From the NCBI GenBank assembly GCA_963801015.1, contig CAWDCV010000002.1, forward strand, positions 21,867 through 85,866: a stretch of DNA of 64,000 nt, read 5' to 3'. The notes beneath the pieces were generated by a model, which had not been told where the DNA came from, searched no databases, and saw only the letters and a program-made list of their open reading frames with translations. The first letter of the stretch is position 1, and every line of letters starts with the position of its first letter. This stretch comes from an uncultured Actinomycetota bacterium (GTDB taxonomy: Bacteria; Actinomycetota; Actinomycetes; CAWDCV01). The position numbers and the translations under genes were made by a program. Positions 42,282 to 64,000 of this stretch are shown here, piece after piece.

Positions 42282-42415
42282 GTCACCCTCCTATCTCGGA
42301 CTGCCAATCCGACCCGTCAAACGGTCGGGACACCGGAAACTCATCGCCCCGGTCTCATCGGCACATAGCCGCCAGGGCTACCCCTCACAGCAGTGATGCA
42401 GACAGGCGAGAAGTA

Positions 42416-43369: not shown

Positions 43370-43382
43370 TGCCACACTCCGA

Positions 43383-45815
43383 TCACGCACCCACTCTGGC
43401 ACGGGGGCGGCGTCGCTCCGGGCGAGGGAGGGCGGCGGCAATCGCGACGTTCCCCAGCGACGCCTGCGAGCTCGCGTCACCCGTCCCCTCGCGCGCGACG
43501 ACGCGCAGGGTTTCACTCGTCCCGACGACGGCGACATCGCCGTCGAGGTCGGTGCGCCGGGCCTGGGCGCCAAGGCTGCTGATGAGATGCTCAGTCGCCG
43601 CGGACGGATGTCCGTAGTCGTTGTCCGCGCCCACCGAGGTGATCGCTACTCGCGGCGCTACCGCGGCCAAGAATGCTGGCTCCTGATAGCGCGAGCCATG
43701 GTGCGGGACCTTCAGGACATCGACGCGAAGGTTCTCGTCGCCGGCGCCGAGCAACGCGCGCTGTGCCGCCGGCTCGATGTCCCCAGCCAGCAGCAGCCGG
43801 ACGCCGGACTGCTCGACGAGGAGCACAACGCTGGCATTGTTGGGCACCGACTCGTCGGTCGTGATGATGCGCCGGGGCCAGAGGACCCGCCACGACAGCG
43901 AGCCGATGCGGTGGGCTTCGCCGACGGTGGCGGCAGTCACCGCAACGCCTGCCGCTGTCGCCTGGCGCAGCACCTCCTCGGTTTGCGCGCGCGGCTCCCG
44001 GAGCGGACCCACCTGCACCTCACCGACCGAGCGCCCACGCAGGACTCCGGGCAGACCATCGACATGGTCGGCATGCATGTGAGTCAGCACCAGCACCGGG
44101 ACCGACCGGATCCCCAGATTGCGCAGGCATCGATCCACCGGCTCAGGATCGGGACCAGCGTCGACGACGACTCCGACACCCGGACCAACGGACAGGACGA
44201 TCGCGTCTCCCTGACCGACGTCGCAGACGACGGCGATCCACGCCTCCGGCGGCCAGCCCACGCTCCACTGGCGCTGCGCCGGGCCCAGGACGACGACGAG
44301 CATGACCAGTGCGGCCGCACCAGCGGTGACAAGGCGGCGTGCGCGATGTCGCGCACGACGCCGCCGCACGAGGCCGCCCACAGCGAAGGCGGCAACGGTG
44401 ATGACCGCCAGCGCTGCACCGCCCACGACCCCACCCGGCCAGGACACGGCCGCGGACGGCACGTCGGCCCCGCGCTGCGCAACCTGCACGATCCACCACG
44501 CCGGGACGCCAGCCAACGACCCGAGCAGCCCCGCCAGTGGTGGAAGCAGTGGCTCGGTCGCCGCCGCGAGGACACCGAGCACCGTGGCAGCCGGCACCGC
44601 AGGCGCGACGAGCAGGTTCGCCGGCACCGCCACCAGGCTCACCTGGGACGCCAGCATGGCGACGAGCGGCCCGCACGCCGCCTGTGCCGCCGCCGGCACG
44701 GCCACGGCGTCCGCGAGTGGCCGGGGCCACCGTCGGCGCAGCAGGGCGTCCCGCCATCGCGGCGCCAGCAGCAGGATCGAGCCAGTCGCCACGACACTGA
44801 GCGCGAAACCGTACGACCGCGCCAGTGCTGGGTCGATCAGCACCAACACCAGCACCGCCGTGCACAGCGCCGGGAGGCCTTGCCGCCGCCGGCCGCTCGC
44901 GAGCGCAACGACGATGACCAGACCCATCACGGCGGCCCGCAGCACCGAGGGTTCCGGACGAGCCAGGACGACGAAACCCGCGATGGCCACGGCACCCAGC
45001 ACCGCCGGCACGCGCCCCCGCAGGCCGACCCAGCGCGCCGAGAACAGCACCACACCGAGCACGATGGCCACGTTCGCCCCACTGACGGCGAGCAGATGTG
45101 CCAGGCCCGAGGTGCGGAAGTCCTCCTCGAGCTCCGTCGGTAGGCGCGAGGTGTCGCCGACGACGAGGCCTGGCACCAATCCGCGTTCGGCCGGCGGGAG
45201 TGCCGACACGGCGTCGCGCAGGCCCGACCGCAGCCTGGCAGCCACCCGTTGAATCAAGGGCGGCGCATCCAGGGCTTCAGGCGGCCCCCGGGCGCCAACG
45301 ACCGCGACTAAGGAATCGCCATCACGCGGCGGCGACAGCCGTCCCGTGGTCGCAATCCGCGCCCCAGGCACGAGCTGTTGCCAACCCACGTCGTCGGCGC
45401 CCGCAATCACGAGCCCCGGGGCGCGCGTCCACGCACTCTGCCCGCGCGCTGTCACCCGCTCGATGCGCGCATGCACGAGGACCGTGGGCGACGCCGTTTG
45501 GTGCTGGCTCTCGCGCAGCTGTGGATCGGCGGTCACGACGAGCTCGACGCGGGCGACCGCACGCTCCACCGCCAGCGCGCGCAGCGGCCCGCCCTGGATC
45601 GCTGCCACGCGCATGCCCGCAGCCAAGGCGGCAGCGAGTGCGCAGAGCAGTGACGCAGCAACGAGGTAACGCCCGCGTCCACCGGCCACTACCGCGGTGA
45701 AGGCGCCGACCGCAATCAGCATCGCAGTCGCGATGGCCGGCAAGAGCGGCGTGACCCATGCGGCGGCCCATGTCGCTCCCGCGGCCGGCACGAGCCGCCC
45801 GTCGATCGCTTTCAT
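43383..45815 (-). CDS. comEC: ComEC/Rec2 DNA internalisation channel with metallo-beta-lactamase domain
   Basis: 810 aa. N-terminal DUF4131-like TM region, a competence domain, and a C-terminal MBL domain (VCDVGQGDA, LTHMHADHVDGL). Confidence 0.85.
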   Translation of the reverse strand: MKAIDGRLVPAAGATWAAAWVTPLLPAIATAMLIAVGAFTAVVAGGRGRYLVAASLLCALAAALAAGMRVAAIQGGPLRALAVERAVARVELVVTADPQLRESQHQTASPTVLVHARIERVTARGQSAWTRAPGLVIAGADDVGWQQLVPGARIATTGRLSPPRDGDSLVAVVGARGPPEALDAPPLIQRVAARLRSGLRDAVSALPPAERGLVPGLVVGDTSRLPTELEEDFRTSGLAHLLAVSGANVAIVLGVVLFSARWVGLRGRVPAVLGAVAIAGFVVLARPEPSVLRAAVMGLVIVVALASGRRRQGLPALCTAVLVLVLIDPALARSYGFALSVVATGSILLLAPRWRDALLRRRWPRPLADAVAVPAAAQAACGPLVAMLASQVSLVAVPANLLVAPAVPAATVLGVLAAATEPLLPPLAGLLGSLAGVPAWWIVQVAQRGADVPSAAVSWPGGVVGGAALAVITVAAFAVGGLVRRRRARHRARRLVTAGAAALVMLVVVLGPAQRQWSVGWPPEAWIAVVCDVGQGDAIVLSVGPGVGVVVDAGPDPEPVDRCLRNLGIRSVPVLVLTHMHADHVDGLPGVLRGRSVGEVQVGPLREPRAQTEEVLRQATAAGVAVTAATVGEAHRIGSLSWRVLWPRRIITTDESVPNNASVVLLVEQSGVRLLLAGDIEPAAQRALLGAGDENLRVDVLKVPHHGSRYQEPAFLAAVAPRVAITSVGADNDYGHPSAATEHLISSLGAQARRTDLDGDVAVVGTSETLRVVAREGTGDASSQASLGNVAIAAALPRPERRRPRARVGA

Positions 45816-46720
45816 CAGACGCGCACCAGCGGGCGCAGATCCTCGAGCCGTTGCTCACCGATGCCGCTGACCTCCTGCAGCTCGTCGACGTTCGTGAACC
45901 GGCCGTGCGCCGTGCGCCAGTCGACGATGCGCTGGGCCAACACGGGGCCGAGGCCCGGAAGGTTCTGCAGCTGATCGAGGGTGGCGGCGTTGAGGTCGAG
46001 CGGGCCCCCGGCAGCACCCTGAGTCGGAACCGGTGCTCCCGGCCCTGCAACCGGTGCCCCGACGGCCGCGGGCAATCCGACGAGGACCTGCTCGCCATCG
46101 ACGAGGACGCGCGCCAGGTTGACACCGGTGGTGTCGGTGCCCGGCAGCGCGCCGCCGGCCGCCTGGATGGCATCCGCAACCCGAGCACCCGAAGGCAGCG
46201 TCACGATGCCCGGCTGGGCCACGCTGCCTGCGACGTGCACGACGAGCACCGTGGTCGGTGTCGGCGATGCCACCGCGTCGCCCGCCGCTGGGAACGTCGG
46301 TGGCGCGGCGTCGTCCGCCGGCGCGGGCGATGCAGTCGATCCGACCGAGACGCTCTCGGCTCGCGCCGGCACATCGGCGGCTACGGGCCAGGAACGCCAC
46401 ACGTACCACGCGGCGATCAGCATGCTCAGAACCGCGAGGACAGCGAGTGCCGCGAGAGCACGGCCGTCGAAGATCCGTCGATCGGTGCGGGGCCGCGCAT
46501 GCGCACCAAGGACGCGGCCACGTACGGCTAGCCCGTCGTCAACGGCAACGGCACCAGGGTCGTCATCGAGCCCGCTCGGTGTCCAGCCGGAACGTACGGC
46601 GGAAACCACTCGCTCGAGGCGCGCCTGAGCAGCCTCGACATCATCGGGGTCCGGCTCTGATCGGCGAAGGGAGAAGCGATGGCTCAGCACGTCGGCGACG
46701 CTAAGCGCCACCGTCGCCAC
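45815..46720 (-). CDS. comEA: ComEA-like DNA-binding protein (SLBB + helix-hairpin-helix)
   Basis: C-terminus LDLNAATLDQLQNLPGLGPVLAQRIVDWRTAHGRFTNVDEL. Start uncertain. Confidence 0.75.
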   Translation of the reverse strand: MATVALSVADVLSHRFSLRRSEPDPDDVEAAQARLERVVSAVRSGWTPSGLDDDPGAVAVDDGLAVRGRVLGAHARPRTDRRIFDGRALAALAVLAVLSMLIAAWYVWRSWPVAADVPARAESVSVGSTASPAPADDAAPPTFPAAGDAVASPTPTTVLVVHVAGSVAQPGIVTLPSGARVADAIQAAGGALPGTDTTGVNLARVLVDGEQVLVGLPAAVGAPVAGPGAPVPTQGAAGGPLDLNAATLDQLQNLPGLGPVLAQRIVDWRTAHGRFTNVDELQEVSGIGEQRLEDLRPLVRV

Positions 46721-46785
46721 GGCGGCCCGTCAGCACGAATCTGTGGACAGATACGGCATGTGGATAACCCGGATCGTCCGCGGGC

Positions 46786-47634
46786 TCAGCCGCGCGGGGC
46801 AACCACCACGGCGACCATGCCGGGTCCGACGTGAGCGCCCACGACAGCTCCCACTTCGCTCACCGACAGCTCCATTAGGCGCGGCAACCTCGCCCGCAGA
46901 CCCGCCGCGAGCTGCTCCGCGCGTACGGAACTCGCCAGGTGATGTACGGCCGCATCGACCGGGCCGGCACCGGCACGTTCGACGGCCAGGTCCTCGAGCC
47001 GCGAGAGAGCCCGAGACGACGTCCGCACCTTCTCCAGTGGAGCAATCTTGCCCTCGGTGACGTGCAGCAGCGGCTTCACGGCCAGCGCCGAGCCGATGAG
47101 CGCTTGGGCAGCACCGATGCGGCCACCCCGCCGCAGGTACTCGAGGGTGTCGACGTAGAACAGCGTTGAGGTTGCGCGTGCACGCCTCACAGCTGCATCG
47201 ACAACGGCATCGACATCAGCGCCCTCAGCTGCCACCGATGCAGCGCTGACAACCGAGTAGCCCAGCGCCATGCCAAGGGAGCGTGAATCGACCGCCTGCA
47301 CAGGCAGCGGCGCCGACTTCGCGGCGAGCACCGCCGAATCGAAGGTGCCGGACATCGCGGCCGACAGGTGAATGGAGACAACGGCCTCTGCACCGTCCGC
47401 CTGCGCCTTCTCGTACGCAGCGAGCAGGGCCGCCGGCGACGGGCGCGATGTGGAAACCGGAGTCCACGACCGGAGGGCGGTAGCGACGTCCGATGCTGTC
47501 GCCTCGCTGCCATCGTCGAAGACCTGGCCCCCGATCACGACAGACAGCGGCACCACGATGATGCCGCAACGCTCGAGGACGTCCAGGGGAAGCGACGCAG
47601 TCGAGTCCGTGACCACCGCGACCCGGCTGCTCAT
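46786..47634 (-). CDS. DegV-family fatty-acid-binding protein
   Basis: Last 282 codons of the ORF. Begins at ATG 47634 with MSSRVAVVTDSTASLP. Confidence 0.8.
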   Translation of the reverse strand: MSSRVAVVTDSTASLPLDVLERCGIIVVPLSVVIGGQVFDDGSEATASDVATALRSWTPVSTSRPSPAALLAAYEKAQADGAEAVVSIHLSAAMSGTFDSAVLAAKSAPLPVQAVDSRSLGMALGYSVVSAASVAAEGADVDAVVDAAVRRARATSTLFYVDTLEYLRRGGRIGAAQALIGSALAVKPLLHVTEGKIAPLEKVRTSSRALSRLEDLAVERAGAGPVDAAVHHLASSVRAEQLAAGLRARLPRLMELSVSEVGAVVGAHVGPGMVAVVVAPRG

Positions 47635-47666
47635 GGGCGGAGCGTAGTGCCGCGACGACGCCGGAC

Positions 47667-48200
47667 CTACTCCTGCGTGCTCGTCGTGCTGCCTCGAGGG
47701 CAGCTCTCTGCAGAGTCGACCTGCGAGAGGATGCGGGTCCCGATGCTGCGCAACTGAGCGCGCTGAGAAACAGTCAGCGCATCGAAGACGTACGCCCGCA
47801 CTGCCGCGACGTGGTCGGGAGCAGCGGCGACCACCTTGTCCATGCCGGCATTGGTGAGAACCGCATTGGTGGCGCGACCGTCGTGCGGACAAGGCTCACG
47901 ACGCAGATACTTCTGCTTCTCCAACCGACTCGCCACATGGGACAGCCGTGACGGCGAGGCGTGCGTGAGGGCGGCCAGCTCACTCATCCGCATCGTCCGT
48001 GCGGGACGCTCGGACAGCATGGCCAGGACCATGTACTCGAAGAAACTCAGCCCTGCATCACGCTGCAGCTGAGCGTCCAGGGCGGCCGGCAGCTTGACCA
48101 TGACGGCGGCGAGGGCAAGCCACGTCGATCGCTCGTCGCCATCGAGCCACTGAGCGTCGGCCAGCGCCTCCTTCGTGGGACGCCTTCGTGCCTGCGCCAT
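47667..48200 (-). CDS. MarR-family transcriptional regulator
   Basis: ATG 48200. Winged-HTH region MVLAMLSERPARTMRMSELAALTHASPSRLSHVASRLEKQKYL. Confidence 0.8.
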   Translation of the reverse strand: MAQARRRPTKEALADAQWLDGDERSTWLALAAVMVKLPAALDAQLQRDAGLSFFEYMVLAMLSERPARTMRMSELAALTHASPSRLSHVASRLEKQKYLRREPCPHDGRATNAVLTNAGMDKVVAAAPDHVAAVRAYVFDALTVSQRAQLRSIGTRILSQVDSAESCPRGSTTSTQE

Positions 48201-48224
48201 GACACCACTGTACAGGCAAGTAAT

Positions 48225-48270
48225 TGACAGTTCAAACAAAAAATGGATACGTTTGTTGAGAGTTCAACAA
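48225..48270. promoter_or_regulatory. candidate MarR operator in the marR/doxX divergent intergenic region
   Basis: AT-rich patch. Inverted repeat TCAAACAAA (48232-40) and TTTGTTGA (48252-59). Direct repeat AGTTCAA x2. Confidence 0.3.
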
Positions 48271-48291
48271 TCTCTGCAGAGGAGATCAACA

Positions 48292-48669
48292 ATGAACGTC
48301 GTCCTATGGATCATCGCGGCCGTGCTGGCCATTGCGTTCTTCGCTGCCGGCGTCGCCAAGCTGACTCAGCCCAAAGAGAAGCTGCGCCAACAGATGGCCT
48401 GGGTGGAGGACTTCTCCCCCGGGACGGTCAAGATGATCGGTGCTCTCGAGATCTTGGCCGCCATCGGTCTCATCGTGCCGGCTGCGCTCGACATCGTCCC
48501 CGTTCTCGTACCTCTTGCTGCGACCGGTCTCGTAGCCATCATGGTCGGAGCAGCGTTGACGCACGCGCGCCGCAAGGAGTACCCCATGATCGCCGTCAAC
48601 AGCGTCCTGCTGATCCTGGCCGCCATCGTCGCGTGGGGTCGATTCGGTCCCTATTCCTTCACTGCCTGA
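48292..48669 (+). CDS. DoxX-family membrane protein
   Basis: ATG 48292 after GAGGAG. 125 aa with four TM segments. Begins MNVVLWIIAAVLAIAFFAAGVAKL. Confidence 0.75.
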   Translation: MNVVLWIIAAVLAIAFFAAGVAKLTQPKEKLRQQMAWVEDFSPGTVKMIGALEILAAIGLIVPAALDIVPVLVPLAATGLVAIMVGAALTHARRKEYPMIAVNSVLLILAAIVAWGRFGPYSFTA

Positions 48670-48710
48670 CGACACCCAAACGATCCTCCAACAACGAAAG
48701 CAGGTCTGCC

Positions 48711-49340
48711 TTGAGCAGCATCAGCATCATCGGCACCGGCAATATGGCTCGTGGCATCGCCACGCGCGCGGTTGCAGGCGGAAACGACGTTCAGATCCTG
48801 AGCCGCGACTCGGCCAGGGCCGCAGCGCTCGCCGACGAGGTCGGAAAGGCCAGCAGCGGCGAGCTCGGCGATCCAATCACCGGCGACATCGTGATTCTCG
48901 CTCTGTACTACGACGCCTCGAAGTCCGTCATAGAGCAGTACGGCAACGCCCTCGACGGCAAGGTCGTGGTGGACATCTCCAATCCGGTGGACACGGCCAC
49001 GTTCGCTGGACTGGTCGTCCCTGCTGATAGCTCGGCCGCGCAGGAGATTGCCGCACTCGTGCCGAGCGCTGCGGTGGTCAAGGCGTTCAACACCACGTTC
49101 GCGGGCACCCTCGCCGCTGGCGAGGTCGAGGGGCAGCCATTGGATGTGCTGATCGCCGGCGACGACGATGCGGCAAAGCGAGCGGTCTCTGAACTCGTTG
49201 AGAGCGCTGGCCTGCGTCCGCTCGACGTCGGCGACCTCTCCAAGGCTCGCTGGCTCGAGGGCATCGGCTTCCTGCACATCGGGCTGCAGCTAAGCAGGGG
49301 CACCAACTTCGCCACCGCCGTCAAGCTCATCGGCGGTTGA
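48711..49340 (+). CDS. NAD(P)-binding Rossmann oxidoreductase, F420-dependent NADP reductase (Npd)-like
   Basis: Tail of the 365-aa ORF. TTG 48711. Begins SISIIGTGNMARGIATRAV. Confidence 0.6.
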   Translation: MSSISIIGTGNMARGIATRAVAGGNDVQILSRDSARAAALADEVGKASSGELGDPITGDIVILALYYDASKSVIEQYGNALDGKVVVDISNPVDTATFAGLVVPADSSAAQEIAALVPSAAVVKAFNTTFAGTLAAGEVEGQPLDVLIAGDDDAAKRAVSELVESAGLRPLDVGDLSKARWLEGIGFLHIGLQLSRGTNFATAVKLIGG

Positions 49341-49343
49341 CGA

Positions 49344-51812
49344 CTACGCAGGGACGACGTTCACCAGCTTCGGCGCGCGCACGACGACATTTCGGACCTC
49401 CCGACCGTCGAGCGCGCGCTGAACTGCAGCATCCTGCAGCGCAAGATCGCGCAGCTTGTCGTCGTCGATGGACGGCGGCACCTGCAGGCGACTGCGTACC
49501 TTGCCCGCCACCTGCACAACGCACGTGACGCTCTCCTGCACCAGCAGCTCGGCCTCGACCTTCGGCCACCCCGCCAACGCGACGGTGGGCTCATGTCCCA
49601 GACGCGACCACATCTCCTCGGCGGTGTACGGCGCAAACAGCGACAGCATCAGCGCGGTGTACTCCACGGCTTCGCGTACCGCAGCATCGTCGGGACCGCA
49701 CCCCGAATCGATCGCCTTCCGTGCCGCGTTGACGAGCTCCATGATGCGCGCCACCGCGACGTTGTAGCGGTAGGACTCGATGAGCTCGGTGACGTCGTGG
49801 ACCGTTCGATGAGTAACCTTGCGCAGCTCGACGTCACCGGTCGACGTGTCGACATCGAGGGACGAGGTCACGTCGCCTGCCAGCCGCCAGGCGCGTGACA
49901 GAAACTTCATCGATCCCGACGGCGAAACATCTGCCCAGTCGATGTCGGCGACGATTGGACCGGCGAAGACCATCGTCAGCCGGACGGCATCGACGCCGTA
50001 TGTGTCGATCTGTTCCCCAAGGTCGACGCCATTGCCGAGCGACTTCGACATCGCCCTGCCCTGATTGATGACCTGCCCTTGGTTCATGTGTGCCGCGAAC
50101 GGCTCGACGAAGTCGACCAATCCCATGTCGTGCAGCACCTTGGTCACGAACCGCGAGTACAGCGTGTGCAAGATCGCGTGCTCGACGCCGCCGGTGTACA
50201 TGGCAACCGGCATCCACTCCTTCACGTCGTCGACGTCGAACGCGACGTCGTCACGATCCGGCGAGCAGTACCGCAGGAAGTACCACGACGAGTCGACGAA
50301 GGTGTCCATCGTGTCGCTGTCACGCTTCGCCGGGCCATCGCACTTGGGGCACTGCGTGTTGACCCAGTCCGTTGCTGCAGCGAGCGGTGAGACTCCGCGT
50401 GGTGCCAGATCATGGCCGCGCAGGTCCGGCAGTCGTACCGGCAGCTGGTCCTCCGGTACCGGGACCTCGCCGCAGTCGGGACAGTGCACGATCGGGATCG
50501 GTGCACCCCAGAATCGCTGACGGGAAACCAGCCAGTCGCGCAACCGGTAGTTGACGGCACCCTCGCCCAGGCGTTCCGCTTCGAGCAGTTCGATGATGCG
50601 CGCGATGGCGTCATCCTTGGTCAGACCGTCGAGCGGTCCCGAGTTGACCAGGATCCCGTCGCCAGCCGTCGCAACACCGCTGACCGCTGGGTCGTCTTCC
50701 TCTGAGTCAACGACGACCCGGACCGGCAAATCGAACCGCAGTGCGAAGTCCAGGTCGCGCTGGTCGTGCGCGGGAACGGCCATGATGGCGCCGGTGCCGT
50801 AGTCGGACAGCACATAGTCGGCAGCCCAAATGGGCAGTCGCTCGCCGTTGACAGGATTGATGGCGTAGCGGCCCAGGAAGACGCCGGTCTTCTCGCGGTC
50901 GGTCGACAGGCGTTCGATGTCGGTCTCGCTCGCGACCTTCTCGACGTACGCATCGAAGGCGGCGCGTTGCTCGGGAGCGCACAGCTCGTCCGCCAGCGGT
51001 GCATCAGCCGCCACAACGAAGAACGTGGCGCCGTACAAGGTGTCGGGACGGGTCGTGAAGATCGTTACCGGCTCGTCGCGGCCCTCGATCTCGAAGTCGA
51101 CGGAGGCGCCATGCGACCGGCCGATCCAGTTGCGCTGCATCAACAGGACGCGCTCCGGCCACTTCCCTTCCAGCATCGCCATGTCGTCCAGCAGCCGGTC
51201 GGCGTAGTCGGTGATCTTGAAGAACCACTGCGTCAGTTGACGCTTCGTGACCTGGAATCCGCAGCGCTCGCAGTGGCCTTCGATGACCTGCTCGTTAGCG
51301 AGCACGGTCTGGTCATTCGGGCACCAATTGACCGGCGATTCTTTGCGGTAGGCCAGCCCACGCTCGTACAGGCGCAGGAACAGCCACTGCGTCCATCGGT
51401 AGTAGCTGGGATCGGACGTCGCCAAGCGGCGCGACCAGTCGAACGACGTGGCGTAGCGCTTGAACGACGCGGCCTGCGTCTCGATGTTGGCGTACGTCCA
51501 GTCGGCCGGATGCTCGTTGCGCTGGATCGCGGCATTCTCGGCGGGCAGGCCGAACGAGTCCCAGCCGATCGGGTGCAAGACGTCGTAGCCGCGCTGGAAC
51601 CAGTACCGCGCCGGCACATCGCCGATGGCGAACGCCTCGCCGTGTCCCATGTGTAGATCGCCCGAGGGGTACGGGAACATGTCGAGGATGTACGTGCGCG
51701 GCTTGCCCGCGCGTCCATGGGAGCCCGCGCGGAACGGGTCGAGCTCCTCCCACACCGGCAGCCATTTCTTCTGCGCGGCGGCGACGTCGTAGGTCTCGGT
51801 AGGTGTGGTCAT
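49344..51812 (-). CDS. leuS: leucine--tRNA ligase
   Basis: HIGH motif ([12 protein letters not shown]), KMSKS-like (AMSKSLGNG). 822 aa. Confidence 0.9.
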
Positions 51813-52008
51813 GGTTCCTGCACTCTTCCTGGATGGGTCCTACGCCTAGCGTGCCTGGACATGGAAAGACCCCTCACGCAGGAGGGGTCGGCCGCGCTGA
51901 ACTCGGATCAGCACGGCCCGCTAAGGAGCAGGCGGAACCGCATGGCGCCAGGGTACCGCAGCGTGCAGGAGGGTCCGATTGTCAGTTGTCTCCGGCATGC
52001 TGCGTGGT

Positions 52009-52518
52009 ATGACGATGTTCGAACGAGTAGACCCGCCGCAGGTCGCAGACGAACGAGCGATGCTCCCGGCGTACCTCGACTACCACCGCGCAACGCTGGA
52101 AATGAAGTGCTCTGGTCTGACCGACGACCACCTGCGAGAGCGCAGTGTCGCCGCGTCCTCGCTATCACTGCTCGGCCTCGTACGACACCTCACTGAGGTC
52201 GAGCGCAGCTGGTTTCAGTCGCGGTTCGCCCGGACCGACGCAGCCCCGATCTACTTCAGCGACGACAACCTCGACGGCGACTTCGACGACCTCGATTTTC
52301 CCGATGTCGCGCAGGTGTTCGCGACGTACCGGCAAGCCTGTGAGGAGTCCCGGCGCATCGTTGCTCGTGCTGGATCCCTCGATGATCTGGGCGTACGAGG
52401 CGACGGATCCGAGGTGACGTTGCGCTGGATTCTGCTCCACATGCTGGAGGAGTACGCCCGACACAACGGGCATGCCGACCTGCTACGCCAAAGCATCGAC
52501 GGCGCCACCGGCGAGTGA
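52009..52518 (+). CDS. DinB/DUF664-family protein
   Basis: Start ambiguous: 51979, 52009 or 52015. Four-helix metal-dependent DinB_2 pattern (LRWILLHMLEEYARHNGHADLL). Confidence 0.7.
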   Translation: MTMFERVDPPQVADERAMLPAYLDYHRATLEMKCSGLTDDHLRERSVAASSLSLLGLVRHLTEVERSWFQSRFARTDAAPIYFSDDNLDGDFDDLDFPDVAQVFATYRQACEESRRIVARAGSLDDLGVRGDGSEVTLRWILLHMLEEYARHNGHADLLRQSIDGATGE

Positions 52519-52527
52519 ATACTCGAA

Positions 52528-52798
52528 CTAAAGGTCGACGTACACGTCGAAGCCGTACTGCTCGACGAAGCCGAGCCGCGCGTAAACCCGTGCGGCCGCG
52601 CCGTCGTCGGGGTTCAGGTGCGCGAGCGTCGCCCCAGGCGAATCCTCGATTGAGCAGCCAAGCGCTGAGCGCCGCGGCGATGCCCCGTCGCCGCGCGTCC
52701 GGCCTGACGGCGACGCCACCCAGGAACACGCAGGGGCCCTGTTCAGGGTTCGGACTGCCGGAGCATGCCGGCTGACGAGCCGCGGCGATTCCCGGTCA
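52528..52798 (-). pseudogene. GNAT N-acetyltransferase remnant (frameshifted, N-terminally truncated)
   Basis: Motif A FLGGVAVRPDARRRGIAAAL in one frame (52729 downwards). The motif B end NPDDGAAARVYARLGFVEQ is in the +1 frame (52528-52660). The shift lies near a CTGGGG run. Nothing GNAT-like lies upstream. Confidence 0.4.
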
Positions 52799-52865
52799 GC
52801 TGCCGAGTCGATATCAGTGAGTCCATCAACGGAGGGCTCGAGGGCAGAACGGGAGATGCGACGCC

Positions 52866-53345
52866 ATGAACATCGCGGACAAGACCGTGCTGATGACCGG
52901 TGCCAAGCGCGGCATCGGTCAGGCACTGACGGAAGAGGCTCTTCGACGGCGGGCGAGGCGGGTGTATGCGGGCACGCGGGAGCCGCATGGGCAACGCGGA
53001 TCCTGTGTCGTACAGGGCCCTTGCTCCGCTACCCCTTACGCCGGCGTACTCGATCTCCAAGGCGGCTGCGCTGTCGCTGACCCAGTCGCTGCGCGCGCTG
53101 CTAGCGAGACAGGGCCGCGGGTGCATGCCGTCCTGACCGGACCCACCGACACCGACATGACCCGCGTCCTGAACATCCCCAAGTCGCCGCCGCTCACTGT
53201 TGCTCGCGCCATCCTCGACGGCCTCGACGGCCTCGACGACGGCGAGGAAGACATCTTCCTGACCCCTGTCCCGATCCCTCGCCGAGAGCTGGTACGGCGG
53301 CGCGGCCAAACACTCGAGCGTCAGAACGCGGAGCTCGTGGCATGA
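52866..53345 (+). pseudogene. SDR-family oxidoreductase remnant (internal deletion plus frameshifts)
   Basis: TGAKRGIGQAL Rossmann motif in frame. Catalytic AYSISKAAALSLTQSLRAL (YxxxK) reads only in the +1 frame. Then RVHAVLTGPTDTDMTR is back in frame. The motif spacing is about 80 aa too short. Confidence 0.45.
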
Positions 53346-53804
53346 GCAGAGCACCATCACGAGCGCCGGATTCACCACTGTGCTGTCGGTGGACACACTC
53401 CCGATGAGGCCTTCGCGGCAATCACAAACGTTCGCGGGTGGTGGACGGGAGACGTCGACGGCACGACCGACGAGCTGGGCGGGGAGTTCACCTATCGCTA
53501 CCGCCACCTCCACGTCTCCACGCAGCAGGTCACCGAACTCGTCCCAGGGAAACGGGGCACGTGGCGGGTCCTGGATGCTGCACTGGCGTTCACGAACGAT
53601 CCCGCCGAGTGGGCCGGCACCGACATCAGCTTCGACATCGCACGCCGGGGTGAGGTGACCAAGGTCCGATTCACCCACCGCGGCCTGGTCCCTGAGTTCG
53701 AGTGCCTTGACAGATGCTCGAGCGCCCGGGGCTTCTTCGTGCACGAGAGTTTGCGGCGGTTGATCGCGACGTGTGTGGGGCCCACTCAGCCGCCGTGGGC
53801 GTAG
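53343..53804 (+). pseudogene. SRPBCC-family protein with N-terminal frameshift
   Basis: STITSAGFTTVLSVDTLP is in one frame, then EAFAAITNVRGWWTGDVDG... in another. This is consistent with a 1-nt deletion near 53400. The main frame lacks a start codon. Confidence 0.4.
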
Positions 53805-53840
53805 AGCTCGCGCCGCTGGCTACACATCGAGCGACTCAGC

Positions 53841-54229
53841 TCAGGTCGGCGCCAGCACATCGCAGGATAGTTCAGCTCGTGCCAGGCGCAGATCGGTGGT
53901 CAGGAGTGGGCACCGCCGCTCCTCCGCAAGCGCCACATACAAGCCGTCCAAGACCCGGATACGTTCTCCCAGCTCTAGGGCGCGGCGCAGATGGGCCGCG
54001 GTGGGAAGCACGCTCTCGATGACGAGCGCGGTGGCGTCGTCCAACGCAGAACGTGCGTCAGCGACCGTGAGTTCGTCTGCGCGTACGAAGCGCGCAAGCG
54101 CGGACAGGACCTCGGCGGACAGGTGGCCAGGAGCGCAGGCGTCCTCGCCGACCATCTCGTCGAGCACCCAGGTCGCGGCTGGTCGCCCGAGCACGACATC
54201 GCCAGCGCAGACGCGTCCAGCACGATCAC
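53841..54229 (-). pseudogene. vapC: VapC (PIN-domain) toxin, apparently frameshifted near codon 12
   Basis: MIVLDASALAM from ATG 54229 in one frame. The rest (VLDEMVGEDACAPGHLSAEVLSALARFV...LLTTDLRLARA) is in the frame of ORF 53841..54194. Catalytic D5 and the C-terminal D are retained. Confidence 0.5.
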
Positions 54230-54432
54230 GTGCCGAAGTGGCCTCGCACGTCGTCCATGACGTCGGAGATGCTCGTTTCGCTGGACGTCCGGCGCGGGAC
54301 GGTCCGCATGTCTGCGATCCAGTCGCTCAGGCCAGCCGTGCGGATCGCCCGCTCCACCGCGTCCTGCGTGAGCGCCGAAAGGGGCAGGTTGCGCTCGCGC
54401 GCCTCGCGGTAAAGGTCATCAGGAAGGTACAC
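54226..54432 (-). CDS. vapB: VapB-type ribbon-helix-helix antitoxin
   Basis: VYLPDDLYREARERNLPLSALTQDAVERAIR RHH motif. GTG at 54432 with AAGG upstream. The stop overlaps the vapC ATG by 4 nt. Confidence 0.55.
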   Translation of the reverse strand: MYLPDDLYREARERNLPLSALTQDAVERAIRTAGLSDWIADMRTVPRRTSSETSISDVMDDVRGHFGT

Positions 54433-54606
54433 ACTGACCTTGGGTATACCCCGAGTGTCCCCCGCTACGCTGGCCGCCCATGCTTCAGTAAGTCCGCGCT
54501 GAGCGGCGGCCCGGCCCGCTGGTGCCACGAGGCCGTCACCGGGGCACCGGTGTGGCTGATGCCAGCGTCTGGCTGGCGGCGGAGCACCTTGAGCCGAGAG
54601 GTCGAC

Positions 54607-56205
54607 ATGCGTACCGGCCCAGACGAAGGGGTTGAACCCGAGCGCTCCGGGAGCCGTCGACTCATGCTCCTGCTGGCGGCGGCGATGTTCGTCCTGGTGG
54701 TCGACACGTCCTTAATGAATGTGTCGATCTCCGCGGTCATCACGGACCTGGACACGACGGCCAGCGGCGTGCAATCCGCGATCGCTCTTGAAGCACTGGT
54801 CTCGGCGGCGTTCATCTTGATCAACAGCAAGGTCGGCGACCTGATCGGCCGGAAGCGGGCCTATGTCGCGGGGTTGCTTGCGTATGCCGTCGGAGCGTTC
54901 GCAATGACTCTTGCGCAGGGACTGACGGCGATCGTGATCTTTTGGGCGATCATCGGTGGTCTCGGAGCCTCACTGCTACTGCCGGCTATGCAGTCGCTGA
55001 TCCACGGCAATTTTGCGGGTGCTGCCCAGAGGCAGGCGTACGCACTGGTCGGTGCCGCGGCCGCCATTGCTGCCGCGATCGGTCCACTGCTCGGCGGGTT
55101 CGTCACGACCTACCTTTCGTGGCGGGTCGGATTCGCGCTGGAGGTCGTGATCATCGTCGTCGTACTGAGCCAGATCGGGTTGGTCCGCGACGTCCCTTAC
55201 ACCGGGTCCCGCCAGGTCGACGTGATCGGCGCCATCCTGTCCGTCGTCGGCATGGGCGGCGTCGTGCTCGGGATCCTCGTCTGGCAAGAGGGCGGTGAGT
55301 TCGTCGGCTTGCTCATCGCGGTCGGTGTCGTGGCCTTGGTGGCGCTTGCCCGGTGGCTGATCAGGCGCAAGCGCGCCGGCCTGGTAACTCTGCTCGACCC
55401 GGACCTGTTCAGGCATCCGACTTTCACGGCCGGGGCCTCGGGTCAGATGCTGCAGCAGGTGACGCTGGGTGGGGCGATGATCGCCCTGCCGCTGTTCTTC
55501 CAAATGACGCTTGAGTACAACGCTCTACAGGCCGGCCTGTCACTGACACCGCTGTCCCTGACCATGTTCGCAACGGCGCTGGTTGTCGGCAAGAAAGCCG
55601 GTGACCGGCGTCCCGCCGCGATCATCCGCGCCGGCTTCTTGCTGGCCAGCCTCGGGATCGCGATCATCATCCCGTTCGTCCCACGGGCAGACACCGGCTG
55701 GTACTTCGTGCTCCCGCTCGCCATAGTCGGTTGTGGCTTGGGCCTGTTGGTAAGCCAGCTCAACAACTACACACTCGCACCCATCGAGGAGGAGCGGGTC
55801 AGCGAGGCCGCCGGCGTGAACTCGGCCGCCGGGTCCTTCGGACTCTCCTTCGGCCTTGCCATGGCTGGGGGCATCTTGCTCGCGGCCCTGTCGGTGAGCT
55901 TCACCCAACTGGTCGAGAACAGTCAGGTCATTCCGCAAGCCCAGCAAGAGCGGATCGCCGCCGCCCTCGAGGACGATGCCGAGGTCATGAGCAACACCCA
56001 ACTCGAGGAGCAGATCAGCGGCCAGCCCCCGGCGGTGGAGGCGGAGGTCGTGGCCATCAACAACGAGGCCCGCAACCTTTCGCTACAGATCGCCCTGCTG
56101 GTGCCGCTCCTCGCAAGCTTGCTCGGACTCGGCAACTCGTTTCGAATGCTGCGCCTGCCGGACCAGAAACCGGCGTCGTCAATTGACGGAATGGACTTCG
56201 GCTGA
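54607..56205 (+). CDS. MFS transporter, DHA2 (14-TMS drug:H+ antiporter) family
   Basis: Last 532 codons of the 810-aa ORF. ATG 54607. MFS motif A (GDLIGRKRAY). About 14 TM segments. Confidence 0.85.
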   Translation: MRTGPDEGVEPERSGSRRLMLLLAAAMFVLVVDTSLMNVSISAVITDLDTTASGVQSAIALEALVSAAFILINSKVGDLIGRKRAYVAGLLAYAVGAFAMTLAQGLTAIVIFWAIIGGLGASLLLPAMQSLIHGNFAGAAQRQAYALVGAAAAIAAAIGPLLGGFVTTYLSWRVGFALEVVIIVVVLSQIGLVRDVPYTGSRQVDVIGAILSVVGMGGVVLGILVWQEGGEFVGLLIAVGVVALVALARWLIRRKRAGLVTLLDPDLFRHPTFTAGASGQMLQQVTLGGAMIALPLFFQMTLEYNALQAGLSLTPLSLTMFATALVVGKKAGDRRPAAIIRAGFLLASLGIAIIIPFVPRADTGWYFVLPLAIVGCGLGLLVSQLNNYTLAPIEEERVSEAAGVNSAAGSFGLSFGLAMAGGILLAALSVSFTQLVENSQVIPQAQQERIAAALEDDAEVMSNTQLEEQISGQPPAVEAEVVAINNEARNLSLQIALLVPLLASLLGLGNSFRMLRLPDQKPASSIDGMDFG

Positions 56206-58443: not shown

Positions 58444-58854
58444 ATGGCTGCACCATTCATCTTCATCGGAACGCACCAGGCGAAGCCCGGCAGGCTAGAG
58501 GAGTTCAAAGCCTGGTTTGCCGACTTCTGTGACATCGTCGTCGAGCCGAACGAACCCCGCCTGCTCTCGTTCAATGCCTACGCGAACCCCGATGCCGGCG
58601 AGGTCACCGTGGTCCAGGTCCACCCGGACGCGGAGTCCATGGTTCATCACATGTCGGTCATCGCCGAGCACGTGGCCCAGGCGTACATGCAGTTTCTCGA
58701 GCGGGAGAGTCGCTGGCAGATCTACGGGACTCCTCGAGCAGGTGTCATGGAGCTGATTCAGCAGATGGGTGGCCCGGCAGAACCCGTCACGAGCCAAGAG
58801 CCGTTCGCCGGCTTCACCCGACTCGGAAACTCCACGACCGCCGCCAGCCGCTAA
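58444..58854 (+). CDS. ABM-like small protein (antibiotic-biosynthesis-monooxygenase-type dimeric alpha+beta barrel), paralog 1
   Basis: ATG 58444 after AAAGGAGA. Sequence PFIFIGTHQAKPGRLEEFKAWFADF...VTVVQVHPDAESMVHHM. Confidence 0.55.
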   Translation: MAAPFIFIGTHQAKPGRLEEFKAWFADFCDIVVEPNEPRLLSFNAYANPDAGEVTVVQVHPDAESMVHHMSVIAEHVAQAYMQFLERESRWQIYGTPRAGVMELIQQMGGPAEPVTSQEPFAGFTRLGNSTTAASR

Positions 58855-58888
58855 ACACGGGCGAGGAGGCAGCCAGCCGTTCATCGTG

Positions 58889-59239
58889 ATGGCCACCCTC
58901 GGGATCAAGGAAAGCTTGAGGATCCTGCGAGGTAGCGGCGACCGTTGGGGAACGCGAGACGCGATTGACCGCTTCCGCGCGATCGTCAATGACGATGAAA
59001 CTGAGATGACGATCATCCAGGTGCGGCCTGATACCGCTTCGGTGGATTTCCATATGCAAGTTCTCGGCAACAAGCTCCGAGAGCACAGGGCCACGGCACT
59101 CGCTGAGCTCGTCGAGCCGAAGCACGTCGGAGCAGTGCGGCACGCCCAAGCGAAAGGACCCGAGAGACGGACCGGCAAGTTTCCGGGCTCGCCGTTGACA
59201 TCAAGTGCATGCACCGAGGCGGGTTCACTTGGGCCATGA
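58889..59239 (+). CDS. ABM-like small protein, paralog 2
   Basis: PFIVMATLGIKESLRIL...MTIIQVRPDTASVDFHMQVL, collinear with paralog 1. Start uncertain (GTG 58886 or ATG 58889). Confidence 0.45.
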   Translation: MATLGIKESLRILRGSGDRWGTRDAIDRFRAIVNDDETEMTIIQVRPDTASVDFHMQVLGNKLREHRATALAELVEPKHVGAVRHAQAKGPERRTGKFPGSPLTSSACTEAGSLGP

Positions 59240-59999
59240 CATGACTGCGAAGATGCGAGTGGGGCATCTAGGACGCTACCTAGAACCCCGCTTGCTGGAC
59301 GGGCCTGCCGGGGCCGGGAGGGCGCTCCGCGTCTGAACGCCGACGTCCGGTCAGCGCGCAGGTGGGTAGGGCGATCCAGCCTTCCTGTCGTGGCGGCGGC
59401 GGCCTGGCCAAGTCCTGGTGATGTGGCGAGGCTCAGCGATGCGGCGTGGGCTGTCAAGGCCGCGACCACGGCGTCGAGGGCGTCGCCAAGACGGCGGCAG
59501 TCGTTCTCGAAGCGGTGTGCCGATCCGGTCGGCGGCGACGCTGAGCGGTCGCAGCCCGGTGGCCTCGCGAACGGCCGCGTCGTGACCCGGTAGGCGAGCC
59601 GGGGTCGCCACTCCTTGTCGACGACATCGGTAGGCACGACGAGATGCCTGGCCCTGGTGGGCGACGACGAAGTCGACGAACGGCACCGGCCAGCCGAGGG
59701 ACAGTCGATCCTAGCCTTCGCGGAGTCTCGGATGGCCCCGATGACCGCCCGGTCTTCGGCGCTGAGGACCAGGTCAGTGAGCTGGGCCCCGGACGGTGAC
59801 CACGTAATCTGCGCGACCGCGCCTTGACCGGCTCCGCTGCGAGATTGATTCCGACGGTCTGCCTCGGCCAAGGCTAGGCCGCCCCCGGCGGCCGCGGGCT
59901 CTCGCGAAGCTATGGCAGTGGGCAGTGGGCGCCGTTAGCCTCAGCGTCGGAGGAGAAGGAACGAGTCCGGTCAGGGCCCCTCAAAGGAGGATCAGCGTC

Positions 60000-61739: not shown

Positions 61740-62060
61740 CCTCGCTGATCTGTACGACCGGCTGCACCGGCGTGTAGTTCGGGAAGTCGGCCATGATCTT
61801 CTCGGTGTGCGGCCCGAACGAGCCCTGGAAGTCCTCGATCGTGTCGAAGAGCAGGTAGCCGGACGCGATGTACGGCGCCGGCGCACCCGGCCCGCCGGCC
61901 AGGCGCGTACACCCTCTGCTGCAATACCCACGATTCGCCCGGCTCCCCGCACGTATCGTGCAGCCAATCTGCAACGTCAGACAACATGAGTGCCAAGCCG
62001 TAATGGATAATCCTTGACATCTCCCGCCGGAGCCGGACACCGTCGTCTCTGATCTCTTCG
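61740..62060 (-). pseudogene. EthD-like / dimeric alpha+beta barrel gene remnant with frameshift
   Basis: DSIEEIRDDGVRLRREMSRIIHYGLALMLSDVADWLH in one minus frame. APAPYIASGYLLFDTIEDFQGSFGPHTEKIMADFPNYT in another. The junction sits in a GC-rich run. Boundaries approximate. Confidence 0.3.
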
Positions 62061-62329
62061 ATCGAGTCGGTCCGTGCGTATGAATCGTGGTTTGCTGTAA
62101 CAACCCCGGTCACCATTTCGGGGCGTGCGGCGGGAACAGTGGAGATCCGCTTAGAACACCGGGGGCGGGGATGCTCATCTCGTCTGCGAGATACCGGTTT
62201 CGTGAGGTTTCCGGGTACTTGAAGAAGCGCTGGTAATAACCGAGGAATAGGCGAGGAACTGGGAATCGGAATGCCGGGAGCCTCGTCAAAAGGCCCCTCC
62301 GTTGGAAACCCGCAAGTCATGAATTCCTC

Positions 62330-62690
62330 CTGGGCGAGGCCGTTGCCGCATACCAGTTCGGAACACCCGGGCAGTCGCTGATCAACGACGTGGTGATCAC
62401 TCGGGACGGGGCGTGGTTCACCGATTCCCAGCAGCCCCGGCTCTACTTCGTGCCGATCAGCCCAACCGGGGTGCCCGGAGAATTCACCGTACTTGAATTA
62501 ACCGGACCGGCAGCCGACATCAGCGGCGAGTTCAATCTGAACGGAATAGCCGCAACACCCAACGGGCGCATGCTGATCGTCGGGCATTCCACCAATCAAG
62601 CCCTCTACACCGTCGATCCCGTGAGAGAGGCGAGCACGCTTCTCACGAACGTGGCCGATCCAGACGGAATCTCTCGGGACGCTTGCGGCG
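62330..62690 (+). pseudogene. C-terminal fragment of a beta-propeller (SMP-30/gluconolactonase/strictosidine-synthase-like) protein
   Basis: LGEAVAAYQFGTPGQSLINDVVITRDGAWFTDSQQPRLYFVPIS...IVGHSTNQALYTVDP with no start codon and no upstream propeller blades. Preceded by a lower-GC purine-rich stretch. Confidence 0.35.
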
Positions 62691-62816
62691 GCAAGTCGCG
62701 ATCAGCTTGGGCGTCGACGCGTCCCGACCCGTCCCCGCCAAGCAGGGATCAAAGGGTGGCAGTTGGCCGCGGTCGGCACCCACAAGGGGTGAGGCGCCGG
62801 CCGCCGCCGAGCAGCC

Positions 62817-63293
62817 CTAGACGAGGTAAGAGCAGACGACGTCCTGCTCCCCCTCCAGGAAGGAGTGCGGCCCGTGCACCATTGTTGGGCCCTCTTCGCC
62901 CAGAATGAACGAGATGTAGCCGACGTCCCGGATTACCACGCCACCATCCGGGCTCCGGAAGCCCAACGGCAGCCCGGTGACCGTAACCGAGTCACCGCTC
63001 TCGTACGCCCTCCACACCTCGCGCTCAATCAGCGACCCGCCCGGCCCGTGATCGTCGCGCGGAACGTGGAATGGTGCAGCACCGAGCCGATCCTTCAAGG
63101 CCACGGTGCGATCGGTGAACGTGGCCAAGATGGTGATCTCCGCCCCACACAACTCGCTCAGGAACTCGTCGACCTCGGTAAAGGTGTCGGTGAAGGTGGT
63201 CGGTGGATCCGCCACCGCAGTACCGGCGCCTCCCAGCATCGCCACCGCAGCCAATCCGACGGCTGCGCTGACGCGTCCAATGCTCCTCACCAT
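62817..63293 (-). CDS. small secreted protein of unknown function
   Basis: Last 158 codons of the 265-aa ORF. Signal peptide MVRSIGRVSAAVGLAAVAMLGGAGTAVA. Confidence 0.5.
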   Translation of the reverse strand: MVRSIGRVSAAVGLAAVAMLGGAGTAVADPPTTFTDTFTEVDEFLSELCGAEITILATFTDRTVALKDRLGAAPFHVPRDDHGPGGSLIEREVWRAYESGDSVTVTGLPLGFRSPDGGVVIRDVGYISFILGEEGPTMVHGPHSFLEGEQDVVCSYLV

Positions 63294-64000
63294 GGTCCCC
63301 CCCAAAAAAGAGTGGACTCCGCCGTGCTGGCGCACGGTAATCGCCTGCATTGTCGGCCGGAAGCGTTGAAAAGCGTCACGCGCCTCCGCCGCATGCCCCG
63401 AGACCGAGCGCCTACGTGACATCCGCCCGTGCCCTCCCCGACCATCCAGTCTCCAGTCGTGCAACCCAGTAAATGAGACTCGGATGGGGGGATAAGAGCA
63501 GTGGTGGCAGCCACCAGCAATAGGCCCAAAACGAGTGACGCATCTGTCGCTGGTTGTTGCTGTCAATTGCCCTAAATTCTGGTTCTTATACGCAAAACAC
63601 GCATACGGGGGCAATCGGTGGGGGCGCTGCCCGGCGACTCATCTAACCGTCAACGTGCTGGGCCCGTTGTCGTCGTTCGAACGCTGCGGCGTGGTGGACA
63701 CAAGCGCTTGCCTGTGGTGGGCCTCCAGAGCCGCCCTTCCCCACCTGCCACCGCGTCAACGCCTAGACCGGTGGTAGCCCCAGGAGTTCTACGCACATTC
63801 CTGCGGGTCCCAGCTGGACACTGAGAAGACGTGCGGCGACCACGGGGACGTTCCCCTCATGAGCGAGCGATTTCGGTTGATGTCTCCACACGACCTCTCT
63901 AGCCGCTATCGGTTTCGGCTAACGGAATGCCTTGCCGTTCGGTGCCCTCGGTCCTTCGACAAGCCCGAGTTCCCTTACAGAGCAGGCCTTTCCGGGCTTC

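Follow-up and report, generated by a model that had tools for sequence, protein, structure and literature searches.

Four adjacent pseudogenes at an accessory locus of an uncultured actinobacterium, two of them the probable remains of a sigma-factor operon

Four broken genes between intact neighbours

The segment 52528-54229 of the window, i.e. the whole stretch of 64,000 nucleotides that was analysed, contains four adjacent pseudogenes, GNAT, SDR, SRPBCC and vapC, identified by Pfam searches and by comparison with intact relatives. We consider, with a probability of about 90%, that they are real and non-functional gene remnants, in an accessory locus that has leuS/MST on one side and an MFS gene on the other. 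Pfam assigned the pieces to GNAT, SDR (adh_short), SRPBCC/AHSA1 and PIN, and in all four genes a clear family homology was combined with a frame that is broken or truncated relative to intact orthologues or homologues. When the lesions were mapped against intact relatives, small indels plus larger deletions were found to have broken the four genes. The first-pass annotation had described motifs split across reading frames in each gene, a pattern that was recovered in all four and at the same coordinates; frameshifts are indeed present, but the damage to GNAT and SDR comes mainly from deletions.

On its left side the decayed segment is bounded by an intact gene of the MST (mycothiol-S-transferase/DinB) family (51979..52518, + strand), which matched the whole Pfam MST profile (2e-49) and whose 179-aa product has identical copies on six other contigs. 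The right boundary is an intact MFS transporter gene (54607..56205, + strand), called MFS_1 in both of the related contigs L081 and L091, which aligned without gaps to L081 over 1687 bp (92% identity) and likewise without gaps to L091. The third intact neighbour of the cluster is vapB.

In a search anchored on LeuS, which led to Nocardioidaceae and other Actinomycetota MAGs, the best match reached only 72% identity, so comparison of orthologues through synteny with the nearest reference genomes was dropped. None of the 80 LeuS-anchored loci of reference genomes carried these genes beside leuS, and the cluster was therefore regarded as accessory. An exact-protein look-up, in an index without the window's own contig, returned no record of LeuS or of the 159-aa ORF derived from the SDR gene. 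Rfam gave no match within 51.5-55 kb. A mobile-element origin was rejected, as the window lacks tRNA genes and neither IS-like nor long flanking repeats are present. Frame intactness was judged by Pfam scans; GC3 frame plots were too noisy at 66% GC for placing frameshifts, and GC3 ORF tiling was set aside since it gave false gaps.

Lesions of the individual genes

The GNAT acetyltransferase remnant (52528..52738, - strand) consists of the last 70 of 243 codons and carries a -2 frameshift. Homology to the intact gene of 243 codons (L081, 10550-11281) ends at 52738, and 173 codons are therefore missing. The alignment placed the loss of CG at ~52630-52632, between motif A (RRRGIAAAL) and the C-terminal strands, which leaves the last 34 codons out of frame with motif A. 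Even after repair, the fragment covered only positions 57-116 of the 116 of the Pfam Acetyltransf_1 profile; a complete fold, with N-terminal strands, motif A and motif B in one frame, is thus lacking. The frame split between motif A and the C-terminal part had been noticed at first pass, but the truncation had been overlooked. The -2 is common to the window and L082 and absent from L081 and from the partial genes of L084 and L085, in which the site is undisrupted; L091 has a -1 there instead.

As determined from blastn end points and sequence comparison, a deletion junction is located at 52737..52740, where homology to five contigs with the intact 5' part of GNAT (L081, L082, L084, L085 and L091) stops and the upstream region of the SDR gene starts. 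On either side of this junction lies one copy of an imperfect direct repeat of 19 nt (52671 / 52779), but both copies are still present and the repeat was therefore ruled out as the mediator of the deletion.

The native 5' region of the SDR gene (52739..52865, + strand) is conserved at the DNA level with L087 and contains the conserved motif GATTCC-N17-GATATC at 52787-52815. Of 75 metagenomic loci, 21 have the same motif 80-93 nt before the start of the SDR gene, and most of these also carry sigma and/or MDMPI_N genes upstream within the contig.

The SDR oxidoreductase pseudogene itself (52866..53345, + strand) has four frameshifts, an in-frame deletion of 234 bp and a duplication of 9 bp, as mapped by DNA alignment to L086, L087 and L092. 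In order, these are a +1 (A at 52987), the 234-bp deletion at 53004/53005, which removed 78 codons including the NNAG motif, a -1 at ~53115, the in-frame 9-bp duplication (53213-53221), a -2 at ~53261 and a -1 at ~53310. In agreement with this map, tblastn with the intact protein P0002 found the SDR segments in alternating frames. TGAKRGIG and YSISK are both present but in different frames, and no single frame of ~235 codons contains TGxxxGxG, NNAG and YxxxK. As the indels add up to a multiple of three, an ORF of 159 codons runs uninterrupted between the true start and the true stop, with ~60 codons read out of frame. The repaired protein (238 aa) matched positions 1-241 of the 244 of NCBIfam PRK08264.1-4, and 80 full-length metagenomic homologues matched it from end to end, the closest at 77% identity. 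The metagenome scan with this repaired protein did not find a complete ancestral locus of the same species and served only for statistics on gene neighbourhoods. In L092, a segment comprising SDR codons 1-160 is in frame.

The SRPBCC/AHSA1-family pseudogene (53342..53804, + strand) begins with an ATG that overlaps the SDR stop (ATGA). Its start codon is followed by a +5 tandem duplication, GAGCA|GAGCA (53344-53353), and then, from the alignment to L086, by a -1 at ~53396. No ATG, GTG or TTG occurs in the main frame before 53655 according to the ORF list, so that a single ORF of ~150 codons with a usable start does not exist. An intact homologue, P0138 on L086, has 152 aa and is 86% identical. 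Repaired SRPBCC gave a weak Pfam match below the cut-off (PF08327, E 0.0011), and its homologues numbered 2498 at E<=1e-10.

The vapC gene for a PIN toxin (53841..54229, - strand) was broken by a one-base deletion in codon 10, where an A is missing between 54201 and 54202. This -1 cuts MIVLDASAL, with the first catalytic Asp, off from the 117 codons that follow, and consequently the conserved acidic residues, including the N-terminal Asp, are not found in one frame. The repaired VapC covered positions 1-117 of the 120 of the Pfam PIN profile, and an intact VapC of 129 aa (P0258, on L091) is identical to that of the window from residue 14 on.

The upstream vapB gene (54226..54432, - strand) encodes an RHH/CcdA-like antitoxin (Pfam CcdA, 1.8e-5) and is apparently intact, its coding part aligning without indels to L091 and L081. 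Its start codon is uncertain, since the ATG of L091 is ATA in the window; translation probably starts at the GTG at 54432. The vapB stop and the vapC start overlap as GTGA (54226-54229). An antitoxin gene immediately upstream of the toxin gene and overlapping it by 4 bp is the arrangement of VapBC type II toxin-antitoxin operons, and L091 has the same layout intact. In the window, by contrast, the toxin gene has its frameshift in codon 10 and the antitoxin gene is still open, so that the module cannot act as a toxin-antitoxin pair.

Reproduction of the lesions in independent assemblies

The window was compared with independent assemblies from other sequencing runs, the Logan contigs L092 (ERR12916211) and L082 (SRR29483049). 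L092 was 99.77% identical to the window over 53005-54750 with zero gaps, and therefore shares the frameshifts in the 3' part of SDR, the two of SRPBCC, whose structure is the same, and the vapC -1. L082 aligned to 51664-52738 with 0 gaps, the GNAT -2 included. Together, the two contigs reproduce seven of the eight frameshifts gap-free.

These data bear on two ways in which the broken frames could be artefacts. The likelier of them, still very improbable, is that the window is a chimera of co-existing strain variants, in which the junction at 52738 or the deletion at 53004/53005 is a mis-join. Several structural variants of the locus do co-occur in public data, the short-read contigs L084 and L085 end ~85 bp beyond the junction, and the 234-bp deletion was found in the window alone. 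However, the junction at 52738, followed by the SDR upstream region, is also present in the independent contig L092, and the flanks are collinear with L091 at 98.6-98.8% identity. Moreover, SRPBCC shows about the same divergence from L086 in both its halves (~88% overall; 87% for the 3' half of L091), as expected of one contiguous gene.

Even less probable is that the frame breaks are sequencing or consensus errors, such as the indels of long-read metagenomes, in genes that are intact in the organism. Errors of this kind do occur in related assemblies that come from a similar type of project: LeuS is fragmented in both L081 and L091, contigs with Flye-style names, which are therefore error-prone, so that single-base details taken from either of them alone are weak. 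In addition, L092 has neither the +1 at 52987 nor the two single-base differences that the window shows immediately before the SDR ATG. Nevertheless, besides the frameshifts repeated in L092 and L082, none of the indel sites lies in a homopolymer run, one of them is a clean 5-bp tandem duplication, and consensus errors do not take the form of the 234-bp deletion or of the truncation of GNAT. LeuS is one ORF of 822 aa in the window and of equal length in the short-read contig L084, which, at 94% identity, showed three indel sites relative to the window in 5.8 kb, none of them in an intact gene.

The distribution of the lesions points in the same direction. Eight frameshifting indels were located within 1.7 kb of the 64-kb window (Poisson P ~9e-11 if they were uniformly spread), and a scan of 40 ORFs over 49 kb (436-49340) revealed no broken gene, 38 of these ORFs having a Pfam match inside one reading frame, mostly with the whole profile. 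The assertion of the first-pass annotation that the large housekeeping ORFs read through was thus borne out over the scanned part, and its preference for local decay over random sequencing error is supported, since L092 and L082 repeat the lesions and orthologues are intact. One of the checks it had proposed, a search for intact orthologues, yielded GNAT in L081, vapC in L091, SRPBCC in L086 and the 80 SDR homologues. The sequencing-error explanation is largely refuted. The clustering of indels in 1.7 kb also stands, but further decay may be present on the right side, at 58.8-59.7 and 61.9-63.9 kb, and so the decay may be less tightly localised than had been claimed. A Pfam scan of the ORFs at 58.2-63.6 kb was almost uninformative.

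That the split genes still work, either by programmed frameshifting or by encoding new, shorter proteins (the SDR-derived ORF of 159 aa and the PIN ORF of 117 aa), is the least credible of the alternatives. The 159-codon ORF is open between the true SDR start and stop, and public annotation lists both ORFs as proteins, but the lesions are mixed (+1, -1, -2, +5) without a common slippery motif, the orthologues do not have them, the 159-codon ORF has ~60 codons out of frame and has lost the NNAG region, the 117-aa PIN ORF lacks the first catalytic Asp, and at 66% GC long out-of-frame open stretches are expected by chance.

Relatives and the ancestral arrangement

As a set, the four genes are not arbitrary. 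The claim of four adjacent genes holds, but SDR and SRPBCC appear to be what is left of a sigma-factor operon. The order sigma-MDMPI_N-SDR-SRPBCC is intact in L087 (on the same contig as L096) and in L099, and the sigma factor of L087 matched TIGR02960 at 4.7e-105. Relatives 97.6-98.8% identical to the window in the shared flank showed different, overlapping deletions at the locus. In L091 and L082, codon 5 of the sigma gene is joined to the middle of SRPBCC (window 53541), and only five sigma codons are left; in L081, codon ~257 is joined to the last ~15 codons of SRPBCC, and codons 1-257 of the sigma gene remain, with an N-terminus 87.5% identical to that of the L087 sigma factor. No homology to the sigma gene was found in the window.

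From these arrangements we infer the ancestral order GNAT (-) | ECF sigma (TIGR02960) - MDMPI_N - SDR - SRPBCC (+, one operon) | vapCB (-). A contig of the same species with the complete arrangement was not found, and both MDMPI_N as a member of the operon and the extent of the deletion are extrapolated from organisms whose DNA is only ~75% identical.

Sigma factors of the TIGR02960 / PRK08241 group are of the ECF type, with a C-terminal extension and adjacent small-enzyme genes (Mycobacterium SigG/SigJ-like groups). In related loci, SDR and SRPBCC genes are placed directly downstream of such a sigma gene and an MDMPI_N/DinB-like gene, and the conserved motif that precedes the SDR gene was kept in the window. 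In contrast to those loci, the window has lost the sigma gene, and only its presumed targets and the motif remain. Gene order, together with the conserved upstream motif, suggests that SDR and SRPBCC may have been controlled by the TIGR02960 sigma factor.

Proposed history of the locus

In the lineage of the window, the first step would have been the loss of CG from GNAT, a loss also seen in sister strains in which the gene has kept its full length. A single deletion may then have taken the 5' 71% of GNAT together with the sigma gene and MDMPI_N, with an end point ~40 nt upstream of the promoter-like motif of the SDR gene. The junction of this deletion is observed directly, and its content and its size (roughly 2.2 kb) are deduced from the relatives.

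SDR and SRPBCC, without their presumed activator, would subsequently have gathered small indels. These indels are present in the sequence; that the loss of the sigma gene came first and caused their accumulation is conjectural. One base was lost from codon 10 of vapC while vapB stayed open, so that the toxin is inactivated and the antitoxin kept. The most recent events would be the SDR +1 and the 234-bp loss, found only in the window's assembly and absent from the otherwise identical L092. Sister strains have lost overlapping stretches of this operon through other deletions, as would be expected if bacterial deletional bias acts on dispensable DNA.

A different matter is whether the locus is a hotspot of repeated independent loss, with at least three deletions ending in one operon of ~3 kb plus the separate inactivation of GNAT and vapC. 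We regard this as unlikely; if true, it would point to selection for loss of the TIGR02960-type sigma module in this environment, or to a locally higher deletion rate, as opposed to neutral decay.

Significance

According to studies on deletional bias, dispensable bacterial genes first acquire small frameshifting indels, mostly deletions, and are then removed by larger deletions (Kuo and Ochman, PMC2916853, PMC2817411; Danneels et al., PMC6054270). The locus shows the same general pattern, with related strains keeping different pieces and essential neighbours staying intact; the difference from the cases described there is that we deal with metagenome-derived strains of an uncultured actinobacterium and not with isolates of a host-restricted pathogen or symbiont. 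The locus is a case of ordinary gene decay, if an unusually well documented one, and nothing in it suggests a new mechanism or system.

For annotation, the public entries P0001 (159 aa) and P0122 (the 117-aa PIN protein) are pseudogene fragments, and the GNAT and SRPBCC remnants are likewise easily miscalled. For the biology of these bacteria, the strains represent stages of gene loss in a natural population, from the intact gene through a single frameshift and several frameshifts to an internal deletion and finally a large deletion. The locus thereby provides an example of deletional bias and of how a sigma-factor module is lost along with its presumed target genes.

Lesions in the four genes

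The split-frame patterns that the first-pass annotation had described for the GNAT (minus strand), SDR (plus), SRPBCC (plus) and vapC (minus) genes at 52528-54229 were all seen in a six-frame translation of 52520-54540, where Pfam placed the pieces as Acetyltransf_1 (only the C-terminal half of the profile), adh_short, AHSA1 (a weak match) and PIN, respectively. Comparison with orthologues in relatives, which had also been proposed, provided intact references for each gene.

Contigs of close relatives were found by exact-protein look-up of the adjacent mycothiol-S-transferase/DinB-family gene (MST, 51979-52518, intact by Pfam). One of them, L081, shares 97.6% identity with the window over 41970-52738 and encodes an intact 243-aa GNAT, and homology to L081, L082, L084, L085 and L091 ends at 52738. 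The last 70 codons of the GNAT are left in the window, and a CG is absent within them, at about 52630-52632.

The SDR was compared with intact 235-aa homologues (e.g. P0002) and with DNA of the contigs L086, L087 and L092. Codons 1-40 are in frame; the lesions are a +1 at 52987, an in-frame 234-bp deletion at 53004/53005 (78 codons lost, including NNAG), a -1 at about 53115, an in-frame 9-bp duplication at 53213-53221, a -2 at about 53261 and a -1 at about 53310. The net of these indels is a multiple of three, and therefore a 159-codon ORF runs uninterrupted between the true start and stop codons. For the SRPBCC, with L086 as reference (intact 152-aa P0138, 86% identical), a 5-bp tandem duplication (GAGCA GAGCA) at 53344-53353 and a -1 at about 53396 were found, and the ORF list holds no start codon in its main frame ahead of 53655.

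In vapC, one A is missing between 54201 and 54202 (codon 10) compared with L091, which encodes the intact 129-aa VapC P0258; frameshift aside, the window protein equals P0258 from residue 14 onward. The frameshift parts the N-terminal catalytic Asp from the remaining PIN domain and therefore disarms the toxin, whereas the antitoxin gene vapB (CcdA/RHH-like by Pfam) stays open. Two pseudogene fragments are entered in public collections as proteins of this genome: P0001 is the SDR remnant (159 aa at 52866-53345, without a Pfam domain), and P0122 is the PIN ORF in its truncated form (117 aa at 53841-54194).

True lesions versus sequencing errors

No support for programmed frameshifting was found. 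As to sequencing error, L081 and L091 are clearly error-prone, as LeuS is fragmented in both; L092, L082 and L084 were rated as more reliable. L092 (Logan, run ERR12916211; reverse complement) matches window 53005-54750 at 99.77% with zero gaps and also contains the 52738 junction, thus confirming the frameshifts in the 3' part of the SDR, the two in SRPBCC and the vapC -1. L082 (Logan, SRR29483049) equals 51664-52738 without gaps, including the GNAT -2, and L084 (JGI, 94% identical) differs by indels at three sites only in 5.8 kb, two intergenic and one at the GNAT site. No homopolymer runs occur at the indel sites. The +1 and the 234-bp deletion in the SDR were seen in the window only, as L092 retains the 234 bp, with codons 1-160 in frame. 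Gene decay, preferred from the outset over sequencing error, is therefore supported, with these two lesions known from the window alone. The JGI short-read contigs L084 (5845-5925) and L085 (2271-2353) both end about 85 bp past the position matching the junction, consistent with assembler breaks at a structurally polymorphic locus.

Intact genes and the extent of decay

The claim that large housekeeping ORFs read through intact was checked at 436-49340: 38/40 ORFs there, including PPDK, LeuA, Era, RecO, DnaJ, HrcA, LepA and ComEC, gave single-frame Pfam matches, mostly covering the whole profile. LeuS (822 aa; minus strand, 49344-51812) reaches no more than 72% identity with any of the species representatives searched, the top matches being Nocardioidaceae and other Actinomycetota MAGs. 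The source contig is 1,848,131 bp long (NCBI, ENA), and G+C in the window is 62-73% per 2-kb step (about 66% near the cluster). A second, intact SRPBCC/AHSA1-family gene lies 11 kb to the left (41739-42281; Pfam 4.4e-18, profile positions 3-124 of 125) and may make this function redundant.

No coding indels were found in vapB and MFS in the comparison with relatives' contigs. The ATG start of vapB in L091 (54445-54447) is ATA in the window and L081; translation in the window is of uncertain start, probably the GTG at 54432. The 810-aa ORF at 53773-56205 of the mechanical ORF list was rejected as an artefact: it is the MFS gene, which really begins at about 54607, extended upstream through the vapBC antisense strand.

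The claim that decay is localised held in part: eight frameshifts fall within 1.7 kb (P about 9e-11, uniform model), but decay may reach right of the cluster. There, 23 indels separate the window from L091 (98.6% identical), none of them inside recognised intact genes (binomial P about 1e-6), and six lie within 59316-59627, where a 193-aa ORF of L091 is broken in the window. The regions 58837-59627 and 61904-63844, with almost no Pfam matches, look like further unconstrained or decaying DNA. Identity to L081 drops from 97.6% left of the cluster to 91-92% across vapC, vapB and MFS, with no match past 56262, which points to a recombination boundary and, beyond the MFS gene, a second variable region.

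Ancestral organization of the locus

The relatives carry different variants of the locus. In L081 the intact GNAT is followed by codons 1-257 of an ECF-type sigma factor gene, spread over three frames and joined to the final ~15 SRPBCC codons, and then by vapC, vapB and MFS. In L091 and L082, a full-length but frameshifted GNAT precedes a sigma gene cut down to its first 5 codons, which runs into the middle of SRPBCC (window 53541); vapC, vapB and MFS follow intact. L092 resembles the window except that it retains the centre of the SDR, and in L086 (88% identical) the SDR 3' end and SRPBCC are both intact, with another gene downstream.

In more distant organisms, the intact order is sigma (339 aa; TIGR02960, 4.7e-105), MDMPI_N, SDR (235 aa) and SRPBCC (149 aa), and over its first 32 residues the sigma of L081 shares 87.5% identity with this 339-aa protein. 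Among 80 metagenomic SDR loci, sigma lies within 1.5 kb upstream of the SDR in 10 and MDMPI_N immediately upstream in 7 of the 29 with sufficient upstream sequence, and SRPBCC immediately downstream in 10 of the 53 with sufficient downstream sequence. In 21/75 metagenomic loci (L096, L110, L122, L130 and others), most with sigma and/or MDMPI_N upstream on the same contig, the motif GATTCC-N17-(G/T/A)ATATC precedes the SDR start by 80-93 nt. It may be a promoter/operator of the SDR-SRPBCC genes, and it is kept in the window (52787-52815), with the sigma gene gone.

From these variants, the distant intact operons, the sigma likeness and the retained motif, we infer by sequence comparison an ancestral layout GNAT / sigma - MDMPI_N - SDR - SRPBCC / vapC - vapB. 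MDMPI_N would thus once have been present here, and the window lineage would have lost an estimated 2.2 kb between GNAT codon 173 and a point shortly before the SDR motif. The earlier interpretation is accordingly refined: the evidence supports deletions weighing as much as frameshifts, and SDR and SRPBCC as operon remnants.

Order of events

The GNAT -2, common to the window and L082 and present in a slightly different form in L091, is therefore early. The window shares with L092 the truncation junction, the vapC -1 and the frameshifts in SRPBCC and in the 3' part of the SDR. The SDR +1 and 234-bp deletion, being window-specific, came last. Dispensable genes have decayed here neutrally or near-neutrally, by small indels first and larger deletions after, a pattern described for bacterial pseudogenes in PMC2916853, PMC2817411 and PMC6054270.

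Mobile elements, tRNA genes and Rfam families were all looked for at the locus and not found. A 19-nt imperfect direct repeat (52671-52689 / 52779-52797, 17/19 matches) lies on either side of the deletion junction; because both copies are retained, it is probably a coincidental similarity, as GC-rich DNA can yield, rather than the recombination substrate.

The decay of these four genes is ordinary in kind, and its practical value lies in the correction of the annotation and in illustrating gene loss neatly at the population level.
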